Origin: Octopus vulgaris
Taxonomy: Eukaryota
Assembly (NCBI GenBank): GCA_951406725.2
Contig: OX597814.1
Location: 189,906,001-189,970,000 of the forward strand
Direction of reading: 5' to 3'
Length of the DNA stretch: 64,000 nt
In this document: in pieces, positions 5,690 to 64,000 of the stretch
How positions within the stretch are numbered: the stretch's first letter is position 1
How the letters are laid out: each line of letters opens with the position of its first letter
Notes under the pieces: model-generated
Databases searched by the model: none
What the model was told of the DNA's origin: nothing
What the model saw: the letters and a program-made list of their open reading frames with translations, nothing else
Position numbers and translations under genes: made by a program

Positions 5690-5899
5690 TTGTGACCGCG
5701 TGTGTACCGTTGGCGATTTTTTCCCTCCGTCTTCCCTTCTCTGGATCTTTCTTTTTCCTATGTTTCTGACGAAGAGCTCCGCTCGAAACGTAAGACACTC
5801 CTTCTTCCGTTCCTTCCTGAGCGTCCAATAATACTATATTTGTTCCACGTCCTCGCGTTATTGTGTTTTCTCTTGGTGTTTTCATGTTTGGATTAACTT

Positions 5900-6995: not shown

Positions 6996-8048
6996 TCCGC
7001 CTTCACTAAGGCGGAGGTATTGTTTTCAGTCGTGTTTGTTTGCTTCTTTGTTTGTTTGTTTGTCCGGGGACAAAATATCTCAAAAATTGCTGGATGGATT
7101 CAGATGAAACTTTCAGGGATGTTTGGCCTGGTGACTGGCACGAACTGACTAGATTTTGGGATCGATCCAGTATCGACCAAGGATTCTGGATTATCTGTAA
7201 TATTTACTTTACTTTATATGAAGTATTACGATCTTACGTTGACTTTCAAGTTTTTCTCTGATTATCTCCCTTGAAAGCACGTTCATGATTTCCACGTAAG
7301 TTATGGCGGCGTTGCTGTTTCCAAAGTTTTGTTTTTGTTTCTGTATTATTAATTTTATTCGAATCTCTATCTTAGTAGAAACCGATGGATACAGAAATCA
7401 AACTATATAAACAAACGGCAACAAAACCGTTCAGAAATTAAATAACACTAACACATTCAGTAACAATAATAAATTTAATTTATCCTCGACCATTTTTAGT
7501 TTTACCCAATTTTGAATATATCACTCCTGTTCAAAACCTCTTACAATTGCATTTCTAGCTCTGCCTTGAAGGAAGCTTTACTTCATGGACTCATGTTTTT
7601 ATGCGCACCGATGTTGTTAAACCTCCGTTAACAGCACCGTATGCAGGTTCTTTCCGTTTTCTTTCGCGCACGGATAAATTTTTCACTATAGACCTAAATG
7701 ATCGTAAAGACATTATATCAGTGAATAGACTAAAAAAAGGTAAGAACTGTCCCTACTCCGACTGCAGACAACACTCACACAACATTACAAACATGGCCCA
7801 CATACCTACTTTCACATTCCATGACTACCATTGGGATCGATGAGGTACCGGACAAAGATTCTGGATTATTTTTCCAGCTTTTTTACTTAGTTTGTGAGAG
7901 CGGTCGGGTTCATTTTTAGTATTCTCGTTTGTGAAAGCAGTCGAGTTTATTTCAGATATTCTCATTTTAAAAATCACCTCCGGTTAATCGTTGAGAGGAC
8001 GTTGGTGTTGCCTTGGTGGAAGCTTGTGCTTCGTGAGTCCCCTTGTTA
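6991..8048 (+). mobile_element. Helentron/HINE-like non-autonomous element, interrupted
   Basis: Starts TTACCTCCGCCTTcactAAGGCGGAGGTA (hairpin) followed by GTTT repeats. Ends CCTTGGTGGAAG..GAGT..GTT inside (ATT)n. An internal duplication (7157-7195 and 7831-7869) brackets foreign DNA. Confidence 0.55.
7589..7740 (+). pseudogene. Ty3/gypsy integrase C-terminal (GPY/F) fragment
   Basis: Translates THVFMRTDVVKPPLTAPYAGSFRFLSRTDKFFTIDLNDRKDIISVNRLK, matching the gypsy pattern HVFVR.D....PL..PY.GP..V..R..K.F.......D.VS.DRLK. Confidence 0.75.
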
Positions 8049-8061
8049 TTATCATTATTAA

Positions 8062-8273
8062 AGCGACAAGCTGGCAGAATCGTTAACACGCCAGACGAAA
8101 TACTTAGCGTTATTTCGTCTGTCGCTATATTCTGAGTTCAAATTCCGTCAGGGTTGACTTTGTCTTTCAGCCTTTCGGGGTCGACAAAATAAGTACCAGA
8201 TACGCACTGGGGTCGATGTAATCGACTAAATCCCTTCCTCTAAATTTGAGGCCTTGTGCTTCCAGTAGAAAGG

Positions 8274-11402: not shown

Positions 11403-11570
11403 TAATAGTTATCGCCAAACTAATATGGCATTCTTATACAAATAAGAATAAAGCTGTCCGCTTATTAGCTCCATGAGGCCATCGCCTTAAGTTAGCTATT
11501 TGATACACAAACTGTATCCATATAACCTTCGAACAAGGGAGGTCAGTCGCTCCACACTACTTGATCGACA

Positions 11571-11611
11571 GCTACAGACACGTTTCGGGGTATTGCCCTT
11601 TTCAATGTAGC
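11571..11611 (-). ncRNA. Hammerhead ribozyme, U3-A8 core variant (left arm copy)
   Basis: Minus strand: GCTACA-TTGAAAA-GGG-CAATA-CCCC-GAAAC-GT-GTC-TGTAGC. Confidence 0.7.
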
Positions 11612-11928
11612 GTAGTCAGACCAGTAGGTGTCGCTTCTGACAATCCCTGTTCGAAGGTTTTATTTACCTAGTTTCAGTGGAATACATCCACTTGTTTTCA
11701 ATAATAGAAATATTAAAATTACTAAGTCTCTCTAAAAGAGAACACCGGAAATTAATAGGGCAGGTTCCCGGATATTAATATTATCGCTTATAAAATAAGA
11801 ATAAAAATAAGCTGTCCGCTTATTAGCTTCCATGAGGCCATCGCCTTAAGTTAGCTATTTGACACAAACTGTATCCATATAACCTTCGAACAGGGATTGT
11901 CAGAAGCGACACCTACTGGTCTGACTAC

Positions 11929-18892: not shown

Positions 18893-18952
18893 AAATATTA
18901 CTATCCAGGAAGAATAAAGCACCATAAAAGGTAGAATTATAAATATACAAAG

Positions 18953-19591
18953 TTGATGTACATGAAGTACACTCGTTGCTAGAAATAGCAGCCTGTAAAC
19001 TATCGACGTTATGTGGAGTTTCAGTGAATGTCTACAGGCAAAGAGATTTGCGGGCGGTGAATATAGAAAACTTTCGCTTTACCTGTACTGAGACCGTTAG
19101 AGAAATGAAGGATATTTCACTACTGCTGTTTCAAATTTTTCGTATCACGTGCGTGAGCGCGAATCCTATTGGTCCTCTTCAGTTGGATCGACCATCGACG
19201 ACGAAATTTTAAAATATTCACTACATCTATGCCTGTTTACTCGGCTGAAATCCCCAGTCAAAATCAGTGATTTTGGGTCTGATTTTGACTGGGGATTTCA
19301 GCCGAGTAAACAGGCAGAGATGTAGTGAACATTTTAAAATTTCGTCGTCAATGGTCAATTCAACTGGAGTGAACCAATCGGATTCGCAATCACGCACGTG
19401 ATACGAAAAGTTTGAAACTACAGTATTGAATTATCCTTCATTCCTCTAACGGTCTCCGTATAGGTAAAGCAAAATTTTCCTATATTCACCGCGTGCAAAC
19501 CTCTCTGCCTGTAAACATTCAGTGAAGCTCTACATGGCGCCGATAGCTTACCAGCTGCTATTTCTAGCAATGATCGTACTTCGTGTACATC
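18953..19591. repeat. Fold-back element: arms of about 315 bp, 11-nt loop
   Basis: GATGTACATGAAGTAC...CCCCAGTCAAAATCAG (to 19268) versus CTGATTTTGACTGGGG (from 19280)...GTACTTCGTGTACATC. Confidence 0.9.
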
Positions 19592-19697
19592 CGCTTAGTA
19601 AAGATTTATTTGGGTAAAGATATATATATATAATATAATACACACACGCATTCACACACACATACACATGTGCTCATGCATCTCTGTGTACGTGATG

Positions 19698-19880: not shown

Positions 19881-20061
19881 TGTCCCGCCCTCCTCACCAG
19901 CAACATGGCATCATCCTAAAGCTTCAATAATGCGAAGAGCTTCATTGTGAGCAGCGATGTATAAAATCATCTGATAATCTGACTAACACGCCATGATAGA
20001 TCGTTAGCTCCTACACGCATTTTTTTTCTCTCCGTGTTTCTCTCCTTGTTTTTCTCTGTGT

Positions 20062-20101
20062 GTCTTTCTGTCGAAGAGCGTAGGCTCGAAACGTAAAAGA
20101 C
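20062..20101 (+). ncRNA. Minimal hammerhead-like motif, CUGUCGA (A6U) core, in a P1-related unit (20005-20198)
   Basis: GTCTTT-CTGTCGA-A-GAGC-GTAG-GCTC-GAAAC-GTA-AAAGAC. Perfect stem I and stem II. Confidence 0.75.
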
Positions 20102-20201
20102 TTTTTCTATTTATATTCCTGAGCGCTATACTAATACATTTGTTTGTTTGTACTCCACCTGCCTTCGTCTTTTGTTTATTTTGGTAAACTTTCCCGTTAT
20201 A

Positions 20202-20235
<34 letters not shown>

Positions 20236-25500: not shown

Positions 25501-25595
25501 ATCCAAACAAGAAAACACAAAAAAAACACAACAACGCGAGGACATGGAACAAATATAGTATTATTGGACGCTCAGGAAAGAAGGGAAGAAGGAGG

Positions 25596-25630
25596 GTTTA
25601 ACGTTTCGAGCGGAGCTCTTCGTCGGAAAC
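25596..25630 (-). ncRNA. Minimal HHR, family P1, degenerate (U4C)
   Basis: Minus strand: GTTT-CCGACGA-A-GAGC-TCC-GCTC-GAAAC-GTT-AAAC. The unit spans about 25497-25630 and abuts (TA)n. Confidence 0.65.
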
Positions 25631-26872
25631 AAATGAAACTATCAACAACAACAACAACAATATATATATATATATTGTTGTTGTTGTTGATAGTTTCATT
25701 TCGGAATAAAGCACTCAATAGTCAAATCTAGTAAAGAAGTTACACCTCATATTAAGCGTGTCATAATGCCATAATGCCTCAAACATGACAGAAGCTTATA
25801 ACTAGTTGAATCGTTCTCAGTTATTTAAATATTACATATTATACCGACACAAAAAAATCAAAAGCGTAATAAACTCCAGCGTGGTTTCGACTCACAACGA
25901 GACTAAATGCTACAAAAAATTGTGCGACCCTCTACTTCCTTTACATTTTAACAGAAATAAAAGAACTATGACCAGCAATGAACAGTTAAGCCATGTCCTA
26001 TTATGACGTTCGGTTTCCTTCATGCTGTTTCTCTTTCAAATTTCGCTGAGGTTAAATTTGCCTCTCAATACTATTCAGGTTTCGTTAAATTGAGTCCGGG
26101 ACATATATTGAATATACCCCTTGCTCCAATTCAGAGCTCTGTGAGAAAGAAAGAAATCATTCTTAGGGATTGTAAATGCATTCTCTTAGTTATGGCTCTA
26201 GTTGTTTTCTTGTCCTAATAACATTATTTTCTTTGCATTCCGAGTTCAAATCTCGCAGAGGTCAACTTTGCCTTTCATTCTCCCGGGACCAATAAAATAA
26301 TGTATCCATCAAAACCTGGCGTGGATGGTATAGGCTACTTACTTCCATCAACATTTCATGCATGGTACCTAAATTAAAAACGTTGAACACCGAGTTTGCA
26401 GAATCGTTAAAGCAGAGGAAAAAAAATTGCTGAGGTGAACTTTGCTTTTCATCTTTTCGATGTTGATAAAATAAGTACCAGTCAAGTACTGGAATCGATG
26501 TAATCGACTAATCTTCTCCCTCCTAAGTACCCTTTTAAGCATTTTGTCCGCCTGTGTTCAAATTCCGCCGAGGTCGACTTTGCCTTTCATGTTGGTGAAA
26601 TATGTACCAGTTGAGTACTGGGGCCGATGTGTTTGACTTTCACCCTCTCCCAAAATACTAGCCTTGTACCTAATCTAGTAACGATTATTACTACTAGTTC
26701 ATAACAACACGACGCTCTTTGGATCATTCATGAGTTTGTATATCAAGAACTGAAAATTATAAAATTATTGCCTTTTTAAGCTAACCAAAGCTGAAAAAAG
26801 CTGATTGGCTTCTTTGCTCTTCACCTTTTTGGAACTCAAATTTCTCTAAAATATTTTCCAATTTTACTCTTA

Positions 26873-35059: not shown

Positions 35060-35231
35060 AATACTAGGGAATAAATCCAAATTTACAGGGAAAAAATCAG
35101 ATTTAGGATTAAATCCAATTTTATAGTAAAATATTATATAATATTATTAGAGACAAAACCACTATTTTGCAAAACAAACAAGGAAAGACTTAATCAATAC
35201 ATAAAATTTTAATAAAAAGTCAAAAAAACCG

Positions 35232-35274
35232 CCACTACAATTGTTTCTTGTCTTGATCGACAATCTTCAGGTGG
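35232..35274 (-). ncRNA. Type I hammerhead ribozyme (left arm)
   Basis: Exact reverse complement of 36692-36734. Confidence 0.85.
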
Positions 35275-36691
35275 ACTTCCAATCTAAAATATCAATATTT
35301 TAAAATATAAAAATAATAAAATATAAAAGAATCCATTCATAATTTTTTTAAATAATGTTGGTTTACCGCGTGTATATAATTTTTAATTCCATTTATTCTA
35401 TTTCTCCATTCATAATTTTAAGTGAGGTTTGCTTCCATAGCGCGTATTCTTTTTATACATAAGTTATGTTCCTATGGTAACGTAATTTGGTTTGATGTTT
35501 TTAACGGATTAGAATTTAATTTCACTTCATAATTTGAAACTGACTTGAAAGTATGTATATTATTTCTCCTTATGTCATATTGTTATTTTTGATATTCTGG
35601 TTACTTACGATGTATTTTATATATCGTATTATGTGTAATAATGTTGTTTTTCTTTGGAGTGTTTATGTATGTGGGATTGTGTGTGAGTGTGTGCGTATTT
35701 TGGTTGTGTAGTTTGTTTATCTGTATGAATGTGGGTGTGTTAATATTGTTGTATATATCGTGTTTGGTGAGTATGTATATGTATATGGTGTGTGTTTTAC
35801 GTATGTATATTTGTGTGTGAATGTGTTTATGGGCTTGCTATTTAGGTTTGGGGATGTATGTGTTTATTTGTCTGTGTGGGGTTCAGTGGGTTTTTGGAGT
35901 ATATGTTGAGGTTTATATGTATGTATAGGTATGTGTAAGTGGGGTGGGTATTTGTATATGTCGTGGGTGTGTGGTTTACGTGTGTGTATTTGTGTGTGAA
36001 TGTTTAGGTTAGGGGGATTGCTATATAGGTATGTTATAGAGTTTAGTAAAGGGAGATTTTATCATTATATGTTTTTATGAGTTTTGGTTTATCATGGTAG
36101 TTTTGTTAGGGAATTCGTAGTAATTTGTGTCTATTTGCGATGTCTGTTGTTTTATTGCATTATTTCATTCATAATTTTTAAGTAGTGTTCGTTTTACCAA
36201 GTGAATATAATTTTTAATTCCATTTATTCCATTTCTCCGTTCATAATTTTAAGTGATGTCCGTTTCTAGAGCGGGAATGTGGGTTGTATGTGTGTGTGAG
36301 GGAGTATGAATAAGTATTGTGTTGAAGTATTTAGCTATTTTATTTATTTATCGTTGCCTAGACGTTTTTATGTGTATGTATAGGGATATATATATAGGTG
36401 TGTGATTTAGTGTATGTATTTAGATATGGTTATATATAATTAGTTATATGTGTATGGGTGTATATATAGTTTTTTTTTTATATATATTTTATATTTTATA
36501 TTTTATATTTATATTTTATATTTAATTGTTGATAGGTTTATTTTAGTTTATATATTGTTTATATATTGATTATATATGGATTATATATAGGTTATAAATA
36601 GATTATATATTTATATTTTTTCATTAATACTTTAATTATTTTAAAATTATTATTTTTATATTTTAAAATATTGATATTTTAGATTGGAAGT

Positions 36692-36734
36692 CCACCTGAA
36701 GATTGTCGATCAAGACAAGAAACAATTGTAGTGG
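36692..36734 (+). ncRNA. Type I hammerhead ribozyme (right arm)
   Basis: CCAC-CTGAAGA-TTGTC-GATCAA-GACAA-GAAAC-AATT-GTA-GTGG. All three stems intact, palindromic ACAATTGT stem III, GUA triplet. Confidence 0.9.
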
Positions 36735-36819
36735 CGGTTTTTTTGACTTTTTATTAAAATTTTATGTATTGATTAAGTCTTTCCTTGTTTGTTTTGCAAA
36801 ATAGTGGTTTTGTCTCTAA

Positions 36820-36889
<70 letters not shown>

Positions 36890-38350: not shown

Positions 38351-38394
38351 ACATAACTCGTGTTATAGTGGTATCATTATTACTATTTTCAGTA

Positions 38395-38610
38395 AGACGT
38401 CGAACTGGCCGAATCATTAGTATACTGGGAAAAATACTCAACGGCATTTCGTCTCTTTTTACGTTCTGAGTTCAAATTCCTCCGAGGCTGACTTTGCCTT
38501 TCATCTTTTCAGGGTCGATGATATAAGTACCAGTTGAGTACCGGGGTCGATGTAATCGATTATCCCTCTCTCCAAAATTTCAGGACTTTTGCCTTTAGTA
38601 AAAAGGATTA
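38395..38610 (+). mobile_element. SINE family A (alternative tail)
   Basis: GTTCTGAGTTCAAATTCC..GACTTTGCCTTTCATC..AAGTACCAG. Confidence 0.8.
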
Positions 38611-42630: not shown

Positions 42631-42939
42631 ACTCTATAGTAAATATTCTGCACAATACTACAGATTAACTTGTCAGTTGCTTGACTTTAACCACTTGTCC
42701 CTTGCTGACAATATGTGCATCTCTGATCATGAGGAGGAGAAGTGAAGGGGCATCATGCCCATATGTTGAGAAGGATTATTTACGATTTGAACAAATATAT
42801 AAATAAAGCAAAGTTTGAAGGAAATAGCCATATTTCATACTTTATAGGGTTAGTGAAATAGGAAATAACAGTTACTACACAAGGACAAAAATTGTTACAC
42901 AGTGTTATCACATAACAGTTCGGTTACGAATATAAGATA

Positions 42940-43510
42940 AGGCGGTGAGCTGGCAGAAACGTTAGCACGCCGGGCGAAATGCTTAGCAGTATTTCGTCTG
43001 CCACTACGTTCTGAGTTCAAATTCCGCCGAGGTAGACTTTGTCTTTCATCCTTTCGGGGTCGATTAAATAAGTACCAGTTACGCTCTGGGGTCGATATAA
43101 TCGACTTAATCCGTTTGTCTATACTTGTTTGTCCCCTCTGTGTAGGCCCTTGTGGGCAATAAAGAAATAGGTATTTCGTCTGCCGCTACGTTCTGAGTTC
43201 AAATTCCGCCGAGGTAGACTTTGCCTTTCATCCTTTCGGGGTCGATTAAATAAGTACCAGTTACGCACTGGGATCAATATAAACGACTTAATCCGTTTGT
43301 CTGTCCTTGTTTGTCCTCTCTGTTTGTTAGCCTCTTGTGGGTAGTAAAGAAATAGGTATTTCGTCTGCCGCTACGTTTTGAGCTCAAATTCCTCCGAGGT
43401 CGACTTTCCCTTTCATCCTTTCGGGGTCGATAAATTAAGTACCAGTTGCGCAAGACTGTCTTTGTTTGTCTCCTCTATGTTTAGCCCCTTGTGGACAATA
43501 AAGAAATAAG
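42940..43510 (+). mobile_element. SINE family A trimer (one head, three tandem bodies)
   Basis: GTATTTCGTCTGCC starts at about 42989, 43171 and 43356. Each unit ends TAAAGAAATA. Confidence 0.9.
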
Positions 43511-54038: not shown

Positions 54039-54300
54039 TTATAAATAGAGGATATAATCATTAAAATGATTACATCAGTGGCTAGCCTATAAAAAAACTC
54101 GCCATATCGGTAAAATCAATTTTTAAGTATATAATTATAAAAATATAATTACAGTTAAGGTCTCTGAAGTGCCAACGCCTATACGCTAGAAGTAGGTGTC
54201 AAATGTCTACAAGCCAGTCTAAACTTTTTCTCTATTTTATTAATAATACAAGGCCGAAAGCGTGGTAATGGGCAAGAAGACTTATACAAATTTCGGATAA

Positions 54301-54360
54301 CCCTTTATCTTAAGATTTCGTGTACTGTATTACAAAATTGCTTTACACTCTTCAGTAGAG
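54301..54360 (-). ncRNA. HHR-like motif (left arm)
   Basis: Minus strand: CTCTA-CTGAAGA-GTGTA...TACAC-GAAA-TCTTAAGAT-A-AAGGG. Palindromic ATCTTAAGAT stem III. Stem I is imperfect. Confidence 0.6.
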
Positions 54361-54994
54361 ATACGCCAACAATATAAAAGCGAAAAATACATATACATAC
54401 CGATAAATATTTGCGTACAGATACCGATATACACATGCATTTCCCGCATATATATTACATCTAATCGACTATCTTAGCCGTGTGGTTAATGTCAGAAATC
54501 ATGCCGAGGGGAATATAGTACCACAGCAAAATATAATGACTAGAGAACTCGAAATTATATATATTTATAGAGGATATAATCATTAAAATGATTATATCAA
54601 TGGCTAGCGTATAAAAAAAACTCCACCATATCGGTAAAATTAATTTTAAGTATATTTTATACTCCAGCGCCCTTAATTATAATTATATTTTTATAATTAT
54701 AAACTTAAAAATTAATTTTATCGATATGTTGGACTTTTTTACGCTAGCCATAGATACAATCATTTTAATGATTATATACTCTATTTATAAGCATACATAA
54801 TTTTGAATTCTCTATTCATTATATTTCGCTGCAGTGCTATATACATCCCGGCATGATTACTGACATTAACCCCATGGCAGAGATGGGCGATTAGATATAA
54901 TGTATATTCGGGAAATGCATGTATATATTGGTATCTGTACGCAAAAGTTTATCGGTTTCTGTATGTATTTTTCGCTTATATATTGTCGGTGTAT

Positions 54995-55054
54995 CTTTAC
55001 TGAGGAGTGTAAAGTAATTTAGTATTACAAAACACGAAATCTTAAGATAAAGGG
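54995..55054 (+). ncRNA. HHR-like motif (right arm)
   Basis: CTTTA-CTGAGGA-GTGT...ACAC-GAAA-TCTTAAGAT-A-AAGGG. The two cores differ only at the free N7 position. Confidence 0.6.
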
Positions 55055-55219
55055 TTATCCGAAATTTTTGTAAATCTGCTTACCCAATACCACGCATTCG
55101 GCCTTGAATTATTAATAAGATAGAGAACAAGTTTAGAGTGACTCGTATACATTTGACATCTATTTCTAGCGTATAGGCGTTGGCACTTCAGCGCCCTTGA
55201 TTTTAATTATATTTTTTTA

Positions 55220-55256
<37 letters not shown>

Positions 55257-55359
55257 TCGAAACGTAAAAGACTTTTAACTTTTTTTCCAGAGCGTTAAAA
55301 GACTACACCTGCTTGTTGTTCGTACACCTGTCTTCGTCTTTTGTTTTTCTGTAAATTTG

Positions 55360-55397
<38 letters not shown>

Positions 55398-55461
55398 CAA
55401 GACAGGTGTACGAACAACAAGCAGGTGTAGTCGTTTAATGCTCTGGAAAAAAAGGTAAAAG

Positions 55462-55499
55462 CCTTTTACGTTTCGAGCATACGCTTTTCGACAGAAAGG
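55462..55499 (-). ncRNA. Minimal hammerhead-like motif, CUGUCGA core, in the 3' region of a GIY-YIG PLE relic
   Basis: Minus strand: CCTTT-CTGTCGA-A-AAGC-GTAT-GCTC-GAAAC-GTA-AAAGG. Partial inverted copy at about 55255-55345. Confidence 0.7.
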
Positions 55500-56235: not shown

Positions 56236-56590
56236 GTTGGTGTCAGATGAAGAGAGGAGGTGAGTTAAGTCAATATGGCGCAAAGGAACGAAGAGAGATT
56301 AATTTCTGTTCACGGCGAAGGTGGAAGTCCAGGTGGCCCCTGTGCAGAGACAGTCCGAATACAGACAAATGTTGAAGCGAATGACCGGTAGAGCGGACAT
56401 GACACGACACCGGGGTATAATTGCTGAGTATGATGTCTCGGAGGTGCTCCACGAAACGGTCGGTCAAGCAACGTCCCGTTTGACCAATGTACAGAGAAGG
56501 ACAGAGCAGGCGATGCAGTAAATAACATAGCTAGCGATGCAGGTAAAGGAGTCAGCGACGTGATAGGGATGGTGATGTTTGTCTGTGATG
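56236..56590 (-). pseudogene. Penelope-like element GIY-YIG endonuclease relic (Neptune-type)
   Basis: DSFTCIASYVIYCIAC, frameshift, then YIGQTGRCLTDRFVEHLRDI....PVSCH.....HS......G...........RREQKLI. Confidence 0.9.
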
Positions 56591-57319
56591 AGGGTGGTGT
56601 ATGTATGTATATATACGTATATGTATGTGTGTATGTACGTATGCATGCATGCACTTACCAGCGCAAGTATGTACGCACGTATGTGACCGTGTATACAGTT
56701 TCTATTTACTAAAATCCTTCTTCGACAGGAGTTTGTTTCTTACAAAAAAGTGCCATATCTAGATTCCGGCAAACAGCAACGATAACTGATTCACTTTGAA
56801 CTTTAGAAAAATCTTGCATATTTTTCTACTCTGCTGTCTCATTATGTTAACCGGTTTCTTTCTTTACTTGAAAATTCAAGCGCTTCTGCATTATAACTTA
56901 AACATCTGCTAATATAATCAAGTTCATCAATGATTACTATGGCATAAATATGAACTTATAATCATAACTAGCCAACTATTAAATATTTACTCGTTACTTT
57001 TAATAAGTTACTCCTTATTTCTATTGGTCTTTCTTGGCCCTGTGGTCATTAAAGATGCGTTAAAATATTCCTTTGTCATATTCGGATATTTTACTCTTCG
57101 CTAAACCCATTCAACGGTTTTATCGCTTTGAAATCTGGATTTTCTACACCTGAAGAATTTCAATATCCTTTAAGACACGTATCTGACAGTATAGATAGCC
57201 TAAAGCTCGGATTCTGTGTGACGATGGAAATACCCCATCTTTCAACCATCCCAAGACCACAAATGTATGCATGCATGCATGTATGTATGTATGTATACAC
57301 ACACACATGCACAGATACG

Positions 57320-60285: not shown

Positions 60286-60357
60286 GCCGTGATCATCTAG
60301 TGGTTAGGACCCCACGTTGTGGCCGTGCTAACCCAGGTTCGAATCCTGGTCACGGCA
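60286..60357 (+). tRNA. tRNA-His(GTG), probably a pseudogene or variant
   Basis: GCCGTGATCATCTAGTGGTTAGGACCCCACGTTGTGGCCGTGCTAACCCAGGTTCGAATCCTGGTCACGGCA. Perfect acceptor and T stems. One mismatch each in the D stem (A-C) and anticodon stem (C-C). No T4 terminator immediately downstream. Confidence 0.88.
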
Positions 60358-60667: not shown

Positions 60668-61071
60668 TTAGACGAACATATATACATGCATGCATACATA
60701 CATACCTCTATGCATCACAAACATGTAATACCCAAAAGTATATCAACCATAAAAACATTAATTTCAATGAATTGAACACAAGCCCAAAATATACGGGTGA
60801 AACTAAATATGTAACCTTGCGTCTATTCTGCTGACCAAAAACTTTAATTATCTAAATTGCCTTGATGACGTTCACTATGAGACAGTGGCTAACAGGGGAT
60901 CAAGGGGCGCAACCGCTCCTCACGATCCTATCTTTTAAAATTGGCGTCTGTTCGACAATTATTTTTTAACTCTTTAGTTACCTACAGCAGTAGTTGTAAG
61001 TTTCATACGTAATGACATAGTTACTGAATCATTAAATTAATGAATATAATGTATATTATAATTAGAGATAT

Positions 61072-61187
61072 TTTGCCAAATCACGTTGAAAACGCCAGTT
61101 CTCGTTCGATCACCGAAGTTAAGCAACGTTCGAGCCTAGTTAGTTATTAGATTGGTGACCGCTTGGGAAACCGAGGTGCAGTAAACA
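61072..61187 (+). rRNA. 5S rRNA-like copy (likely pseudogene)
   Basis: GCCAAATCACGTTGAAAACGCCAGTTCTCGTTCGATCACCGAAGTTAAGCAACG..GAGCC..GTTAGT..GGTGACCGCTTGGGAA..GGTGCAGTAAACA followed by T6. The first few 5' nucleotides do not pair with the 3' end. Confidence 0.88.
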
Positions 61188-61858: not shown

Positions 61859-62030
61859 CAGTTCTATATTTAAGAGATGAGGAATTATGTGCATCATTTA
61901 CATTATTTACATTCGATGGATATTTGTCCTCATCTTGTTTGTTGTTAACACGTTTCGGTTGATATACCCTCCAGCCTTCTTCAGGTGTCTTGGGGAAATT
62001 TCAAACCTTGGTTCTCATTCCTAAGGTATC
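61859..62030 (-). mobile_element. PLE-like 3' fragment with defective HHR (61947-61989)
   Basis: Minus strand: GACAC-CTGAAGA-A-GGCTG..CAACC-GAAAC-GTGTT. Stem I GACAC/GTGTT is present but the cleavage triplet is missing. Confidence 0.6.
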
Positions 62031-63783: not shown

Positions 63784-63833
63784 ATTATTGTTGTTGTTGT
63801 TGTTGTTGTTATTATTATTATCATCATCATTAA

Positions 63834-64000
63834 GGCGGCGAGCTGGGAGAATCGTTAGCACGCCAGATGTAATACTTAGCGGTATTTCGTCTGCTGCTAC
63901 GTTCTGAGTTCAAATTCCCCCGAGGATGACTTTTCCTTTCATCCTTTCTCGATCGATAAATTAAGTACCAGTTGAGTACTGGGTTCCATGTGATCGACTG
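63834..64000 (+). mobile_element. SINE family A, cut by the window end
   Basis: GGCGGCGAGCTGG.AGAATCGTTAGCACGCC...GAGTTCAAATTCC. Confidence 0.85.

Follow-up and report, generated by a model that had tools for sequence, protein, structure and literature searches.

Hammerhead ribozymes have a core in which A6 is normally fixed, and the motif at 20062 of the 64-kb window from Octopus vulgaris analyzed here (the window being the whole stretch of DNA, 64,000 nucleotides) has U at that position. The locus therefore raises the question of what such a core is doing in a mobile lineage. The original prediction was that A6U is fixed in that lineage, either as a rare active variant or as a ribozyme retained as a structural signal. 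The core CTGTCGA reads as claimed both at 20062 (+) and in a second copy at 55462 (-). The features on which the analysis turns are as follows.

20062..20101 (+), minimal type I hammerhead motif (putative) with a U6 core, from sequence and predicted fold
20068..20074 (+), core strand C3-U4-G5-U6-C7-G8-A9, CTGTCGA, with U6 at 20071, from sequence
20076..20087 (+), stem II of 4 bp with a 4-nt loop, GAGC-GTAG-GCTC, preceded by an unpaired extra A at 20075, from sequence
20088..20095 (+), G12-A13-A14-A15.1, the palindromic ACGU replacing stem III, and the cleavage base A17 at 20095
19988..20204 (+), 5'-truncated pLTR copy of a probable Neptune-type Penelope-like element (PLE) with a TA-repeat end, from matches to the long copies L152 and L029
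55363..56604 (-), second, older copy comprising a GIY-YIG fragment (56255-56604), 3' UTR, U6 hammerhead motif (55462-55499) and tail, from tblastn and blastn
55252..55379 (+), inverted partner of the second copy, 5'-truncated inside loop II
5761..5798 (+), sister-lineage hammerhead motif with the canonical core CTGACGA (core copy at 5766), from sequence
25594..25631 (-), sister-lineage hammerhead motif with the U4C core CCGACGA and stem I GTTT/AAAC, from sequence

The motif at 20062-20101 (+) consists, in order, of a stem I strand, the core, the extra A, stem II, GAAA, ACGT, A and the other stem I strand, and a cut is predicted directly 3' of A17 (20095). Stems I and II are both present in the predicted fold of this copy (z -0.73, an energy that by itself is not significant). 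Because the predicted folds of five copies were no more stable than those of shuffled sequences (z -1.2 to +0.3), the case for a hammerhead rests on conservation of the motif and not on energy. In an Rfam scan of the window, none of the best 150 of 292 matches was to a hammerhead family, and the microRNA matches came from simple repeats and inverted arms. The U6 family has the consensus hammerhead features G12 A13 A14, A15.1-U16.1 and H17, together with stems I and II in type I order, stem I pairs 1-4 being formed in 93-100% of 96 copies. C3, U4, G5, N7, G8 and A9 are likewise as in the consensus, and the departure is at A6, where 96 of 100 unselected copies have U.

Extra bases after A9 are typical of the minimal hammerheads (min-HHRs) of metazoan PLEs (Cervera and de la Pena 2014, PMC4209133). 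The U6 motif shares with these min-HHRs its position in the pLTR, the short stem I, the extra base after A9, the G10.1-C11.1 pair, the palindrome replacing stem III and the occurrence of thousands of dispersed truncated copies. The closest published motif is that of a Neptune element of Acropora digitifera, with a very similar 4-bp stem II and a CGU palindrome (PMC4209133). All 44 rows of the published alignment that we compared, and three further rows, have A6, in contrast to the U6 found here. We regard the U6 motif as a putative ribozyme that, from its pLTR location, extra base and palindromic stem III remnant, would be a variant of the PLE minimal hammerhead.

We found that U6 extends far beyond the window. 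In the 2.8-Gb genome, 2,091 copies of an exact 35-mer had U6 and 64 had a different base at that position (21 A, 36 C and 7 G by hand count). A looser pattern gave 19,320 U6 and 5,239 A6 matches genome-wide, the A6 matches coming for the most part from a sister family whose loop II has 3 nt, and reversed-pattern controls for the looser searches gave 0 matches. A search with the core left open gave 17,050 matches, whose base composition we tallied by hand in the first 100 listed, all from the start of one contig: position 6 was U in 96, A in 2, C in 1 and G in 1; position 7 was U in 40, A in 25, C in 22 and G in 13; and position 17 was A in 76, U in 23 and G in 1. The total for G17 in the U6 family was 138, against ~17,000 copies. 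A6 combined with the loop of the U6 family had 180 genomic matches. Most such copies sat inside U6 subfamilies, as back-mutants, in a tree built from 190 sampled motifs, and about five lay near the base, beside the A6 outgroup (the alignment is short and its resolution weak); we infer a single early A6-to-U change in the lineage. We concluded that ~19,000 Penelope-type copies share the A6U hammerhead motif and that U6 is fixed lineage-wide, as originally predicted, A6 falling short of a majority by a wide margin genome-wide. Contigs from four sequencing runs with four organism labels also cover the motif, and their variant table lacks even the known N7 variants, so that it carries no information on U6 in other species. 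The published literature that we searched contained neither a natural A6U hammerhead core nor a measured A6U cleavage rate, although both an earlier report and published rates are possible.

We then looked at conservation between subfamilies. Copies were sorted by diagnostic flank bases into eight groups, with 96 of 181 sorted copies kept and those left out whose loci had been picked for deviant bases. The groups are small (5-25 copies), and we assumed that their order is that of a ladder, running from a median divergence of 15% to one of 1.6% relative to the group majority. U6 was present in 95 of the 96 kept copies. Between successive group majorities there were 0 changes at 26 motif sites versus 33 at 78 flank sites, and a Poisson expectation at the flank rate puts the probability of no change at ~2e-5 for the 26 motif sites and at ~0.01 for the 11 core sites. 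For the U6 site alone it is 0.66, so that selection on U6 itself is not demonstrable. G5, G8, G12 and the C3-G8 pair are all kept in the U6 lineage, and along the ladder the four bases of loop II varied no more than the core did; catalysis itself does not demand fixed bases in loop II. The only variable motif sites were N7, with 4 changes, and position 17, with 3, all between A and U and none to G. N7 and the cleavage base H17 are the positions that hammerheads leave free, and a G at position 17 is, by established hammerhead rules, not expected to permit cutting. As a post hoc observation, N7 and position 17 changed more often than the flank sites (0.42 per site), and this excess possibly reflects rate tuning or escape from host factors.

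An endonuclease frame lies upstream of some copies of the U6 motif, and a protein search of the genome yielded 18,523 candidates. Among the 150 that were scored, which included dozens with an identical score, we picked 20 long copies for their long open frames. The unit is ~4.5 kb, arranged in partial tandems, and several long copies have an open reverse transcriptase (RT)-endonuclease frame. That of L145 spans 1,119 codons, with an RT match above the cut-off (PF00078, E 1e-7) and a CX4CX2C linker and GIY-YIG motif visible in the translation, the latter scoring below the Pfam cut-off (PF01541, E 0.007); a Pfam search with the 246-amino-acid C-terminal piece alone gave no match. U6 was present in all 32 same-strand motifs of the 20 long copies, both repeats of intact young elements included. 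Nineteen of the 20, L152 itself among them, were 99.36-99.95% identical to L152 over 2.1-2.17 kb on many contigs, and the remaining one was 96.8% identical. With U6 in 32 of 32 motifs and with near-identical intact copies, the host element of U6 appears to be autonomous and apparently was active very recently.

The single open reading frame with RT and C-terminal GIY-YIG, the partial tandems forming pLTRs (11 of the 20 long copies) and the inverted 5'-truncated partners (in the window, at 55252-55499) are features of PLEs with an endonuclease (EN+). The CX2-5CxxC linker, the long spacer before GIY and the TA targets are those of Neptune, and we assign the element to a probable Neptune-type clade from this by-eye motif comparison rather than from a tree. 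The published Neptune-clade EN+ PLEs (Craig et al. 2021, PMC8557442) likewise run from RT through a CX4CX2C linker to GIY-YIG, have TA-repeat targets and form partial tandems as well as inverted partners truncated at the 5' end. In a visual comparison, the DKG region looked more like that of Neptune1_Ap, and the linker more like that of Neptune1_Nv, than like those of Nematis or Poseidon (PMC8557442); the U6 element differs in that its hammerhead core is noncanonical. Most copies of the family are short 5'-truncated fragments. We considered and rejected a non-LTR retrozyme, since the unit is ~4.5 kb and coding and the short copies are truncated 3' ends of it. Fragments of a different PLE family (~29% identical to the protein P0001) were seen beside these elements at L043 and L094.

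In the window, the host copy of the 20062 motif is such a 217-nt 5'-truncated end, of a middle-aged subfamily, matching the 3' end of the full-length unit at 86% over 217 nt in L152 and at 89% in L029. The GIY-YIG fragment of the second copy is 79% identical to P0001 over 85 amino acids (tblastn), and its motif at 55462-55499 (-) has the same CTGTCGA core and a private G10.1A change that breaks the base of stem II. These two copies had been taken to be independent. They do belong to different subfamilies, with 133 of 171 aligned bases identical, but their U6 is shared by common descent and did not originate twice. The covariation in stem I that had been read between them also did not hold up: a sixth stem I pair is present in 2 of 96 copies (G-C in 1) and a C-G fifth pair in 1 of 96, a rarity among unselected family copies that identifies the cited differences as private mutations. 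The 8-mer CGAAACGT occurs 9 times in the window against an expectation of 0.87. Long inverted repeats adjoin both U6 copies, at 18935-19611 (333-nt arms) and 54119-55236 (451-nt arms).

The sister family had been described as canonical, but only one of its three window copies, that at 5766 (+), reads CTGACGA. The GTTT/AAAC copy reads CCGACGA, the third copy, near 1016 (-), reads CTGACAA, and the family as a whole is mostly U4C: position 4 was C in 70, U in 28 and A in 2 of the first 100 of 9,885 sister matches (hand count), and the U4C pattern had 8,262 genomic matches. U4C looks to be derived within the sister lineage. Four sampled sister copies have G17, and three of them (L088, L227 and L249) share a 6-nt flank deletion, so that a small G17 subfamily seems to have multiplied although it is not expected to cut. 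The 1.5 kb upstream of the motif contained no open reading frame in any of 59 sampled sister-lineage copies. A compensatory C-G/G-C swap at stem I pair 4 separates the U6 lineage from the sister lineage. The two alternatives originally offered, an active variant or a structural signal, were the right ones, whereas the stem I and sister-family arguments given in their support were wrong.

Our judgment tips slightly toward the first of them, with the U6 motif being a slowed self-cleaving RNA that would cut as a dimer, probably with the protein of the element. A6 would have changed to U once, early in the lineage, and U6 would have lowered the cleavage rate. The motif would cut solely as a dimer (we infer this requirement from the minimal hammerheads of PMC4209133), probably aided by the element's own protein. 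Slow or occasional cutting would be enough, and perhaps preferred, because reverse transcription has to pass the cut site, having begun ~110 nt downstream of it, and the templates would be either uncut RNA or circles that had been cut and rejoined. In favor of a slowed ribozyme we counted the fixation of U6, the young intact copies and the conservation of the other motif sites, together with natural cores that are slow but active. In phage Bcep176, a hammerhead with an A6C core works slowly with Mg2+ and has its activity restored by Mn2+ (PMC3088659, PMC7151607), and a U4C hammerhead is slow in vitro yet supports viroid infectivity (PMC3088659). Like the U6 motif, Bcep176 (Perreault et al. 2011; Naghdi et al. 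2020) naturally carries a pyrimidine at position 6 of an otherwise intact core; it differs in having C rather than U, in being a single phage example as opposed to a ~19,000-copy lineage, and in that its activity has been measured. We also counted in favor the hammerhead of the Poseidon element PAc, which cuts in vitro only with the ORF protein (PMC11167929). It too is a PLE hammerhead, with reverse transcription starting internally, downstream of the cut site, and it differs in the clade of its element, in its location at the ORF start and in that in vitro cutting has been shown.

Several published results count against a slowed ribozyme. A mutational scan recorded low activity for changes in the CUGA turn (PMC9901934), the rate of one ribozyme with Mg2+ at 300 uM fell from 0.3 to 3.6e-6 per min when A6 was replaced by C (PMC7151607), and the minimal hammerheads of PLEs cut weakly even when they have A6 (PMC4209133). 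Catalytic mutants of PAc still insert in vitro, uncut RNA being the main template (PMC11167929), and Naiad PLEs thrive without canonical hammerheads (PMC8557442). The fixation of U4C and the G17 group in the sister lineage, and the invariance of loop II, were counted on the same side, as was a predicted pairing of U6 with A15.1 in a noncatalytic monomer hairpin (p 0.08-0.96, depending on the subfamily).

Some of these points would also be expected if the motif no longer cuts and persists as an RNA fold bound by the RT-endonuclease or positioning reverse transcription, with positions 4, 6, 7 and 17 drifting and the contacted bases fixed, an explanation that we consider possible but on balance doubtful. 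The core changes U4C and G17 arose independently in successful sister subfamilies, loop II is invariant, and cleavage of PAc is dispensable in vitro (PMC11167929). The genomic DNA points the same way. Among the 20 long copies, 9 stop before the upstream cut site and 11 reach it, and all 11 read through, with none stopping there; 19 of the 20 have their 3' end ~110 nt past the downstream cut site. This read-through implies that the templates were uncut or rejoined RNA; it was counted for a noncutting fold and against a slowed ribozyme, but a rejoined circle predicts read-through too. A cleavage footprint was similarly elusive, in that 5' ends of the family matches were not clearly overrepresented at the cut site. 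Of the 94 matches that begin near it, 30 were inspected and 23 proved to be true TA junctions, and a control TA site in loop II gave 50 matches with a stricter pattern than that used at the cut site. In the older A17 subfamilies, junctions with 4, 3, 2, 1 and 0 A's numbered ~30, 7, 7, 5 and 4 (hand count), a 5'-end peak that follows TA microhomology and is mostly explained by it; one later A17 subfamily (1,551 intact copies) had 6 junctions at the exact site versus 3, 1 and 1, a small, post hoc difference. What speaks against a noncutting fold is that the sole variable sites of the U6 lineage are the two that catalysis leaves free, with none of the three changes at position 17 being to G, and that the altered core positions 4 and 6 match those of known slow natural variants.

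The tandem copies bear on whether templates were circular. At 11 tandem loci, the repeats were concordant at shared polymorphisms in 10 of 11 cases, and of the private changes 6 were in both repeats and 13 in one, so that one unit was apparently read more than once. A circle formed by cleavage and ligation has been proposed for PLE RNA (PMC4209133). Both the concordance and the 6 doubled changes are expected of a circular template, and we counted them for a slowed ribozyme; repeated reading of a unit would also be consistent with re-initiation that involves no ribozyme. The junction between tandem units (L143-L156) was identical across the tandem loci in which it was read, and probably was already part of the template instead of arising afresh.

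A third explanation, which we regard as improbable, is that the stretch is kept for a role at the level of DNA, in endonuclease recognition or transcription start, with the hammerhead shape surviving as a relic. The pLTR is where the promoters of PLEs are located (review, PMC6765202), and within the U6 lineage it is the sequence, beyond pairing alone, that is invariant. Such a role does not account for the compensatory stem I swap between the two lineages, nor for variable sites that obey hammerhead rules, and the same fold is general in PLEs with other sequences (44 of 44 rows compared, PMC4209133). Finally, chance decay of A6 in two dead copies, or a restriction of U6 to nonautonomous fragments, would suit a family made up mostly of short 5'-truncated copies but is refuted, to a practical certainty: of 100 unselected copies, 96 carry U6, and young intact elements have it in both of their repeats.

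Returning to the slowed ribozyme, we also considered that the slowing might itself have been selected. On this proposal, which we advance tentatively and think rather unlikely, sister lineages would independently have weakened the CUGA turn, one by A6U and the other by U4C, and would have outnumbered their canonical relatives, because reverse transcription must cross the cut site. The U6 core would cut solely once the element's protein or an Mn2+-like metal completes it, making the motif a protein-gated timer of retrotransposition. We rejected a shared "off" hairpin for A6U and U4C, since the net energy change was without a constant sign across subfamilies; in the predicted folding of two basal copies, A6U, through its U6-A15.1 pair, ranked 3 and 6 among 33 core changes, and U4C was without effect in its own background (rank 22 of 33).

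Retention of PLE hammerheads is a puzzle, given their poor cutting in vitro and the finding of one study that cutting is dispensable for insertion. The present family adds an intact, apparently active element carrying a core change expected to cripple the ribozyme, with the other motif sites kept except for N7 and position 17. The canonical, U4C and G17 versions of the sister lineage in the same genome provide a natural series for separating cleavage from fold and for protein rescue. In addition, searches based on CUGANGA miss at least 27,000 motifs here (19,320 with U6 and 8,262 with C4), compared with 5,239 canonical matches.

Other features of the window include further hammerhead-like motifs. 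An unrelated one with a canonical core, at 36690-36735 (+), has an inverted twin near 35270 (-) and lies in an inverted repeat whose 185-nt arms (35135-35319 and 36647-36831) match perfectly. In a candidate at 11570-11615 (-) the core pair is swapped to U3-A8, stem I has 5 bp and the cleavage site is UC, and hammerhead-like core strands of another family are present at 61940-61990 (-). A 5S rRNA-like sequence at 61068-61187 (+; 65.9 bits) and a tRNA-like sequence at 60286-60357 (+; 48.6 bits) both score above the Rfam gathering score and are possibly repeat derived. A SINE-like dispersed repeat of ~185 nt is present in 8 copies, among them those at 1844-2028, 8043-8227, 38377-38561, 42922-43106 and 63815-63999.
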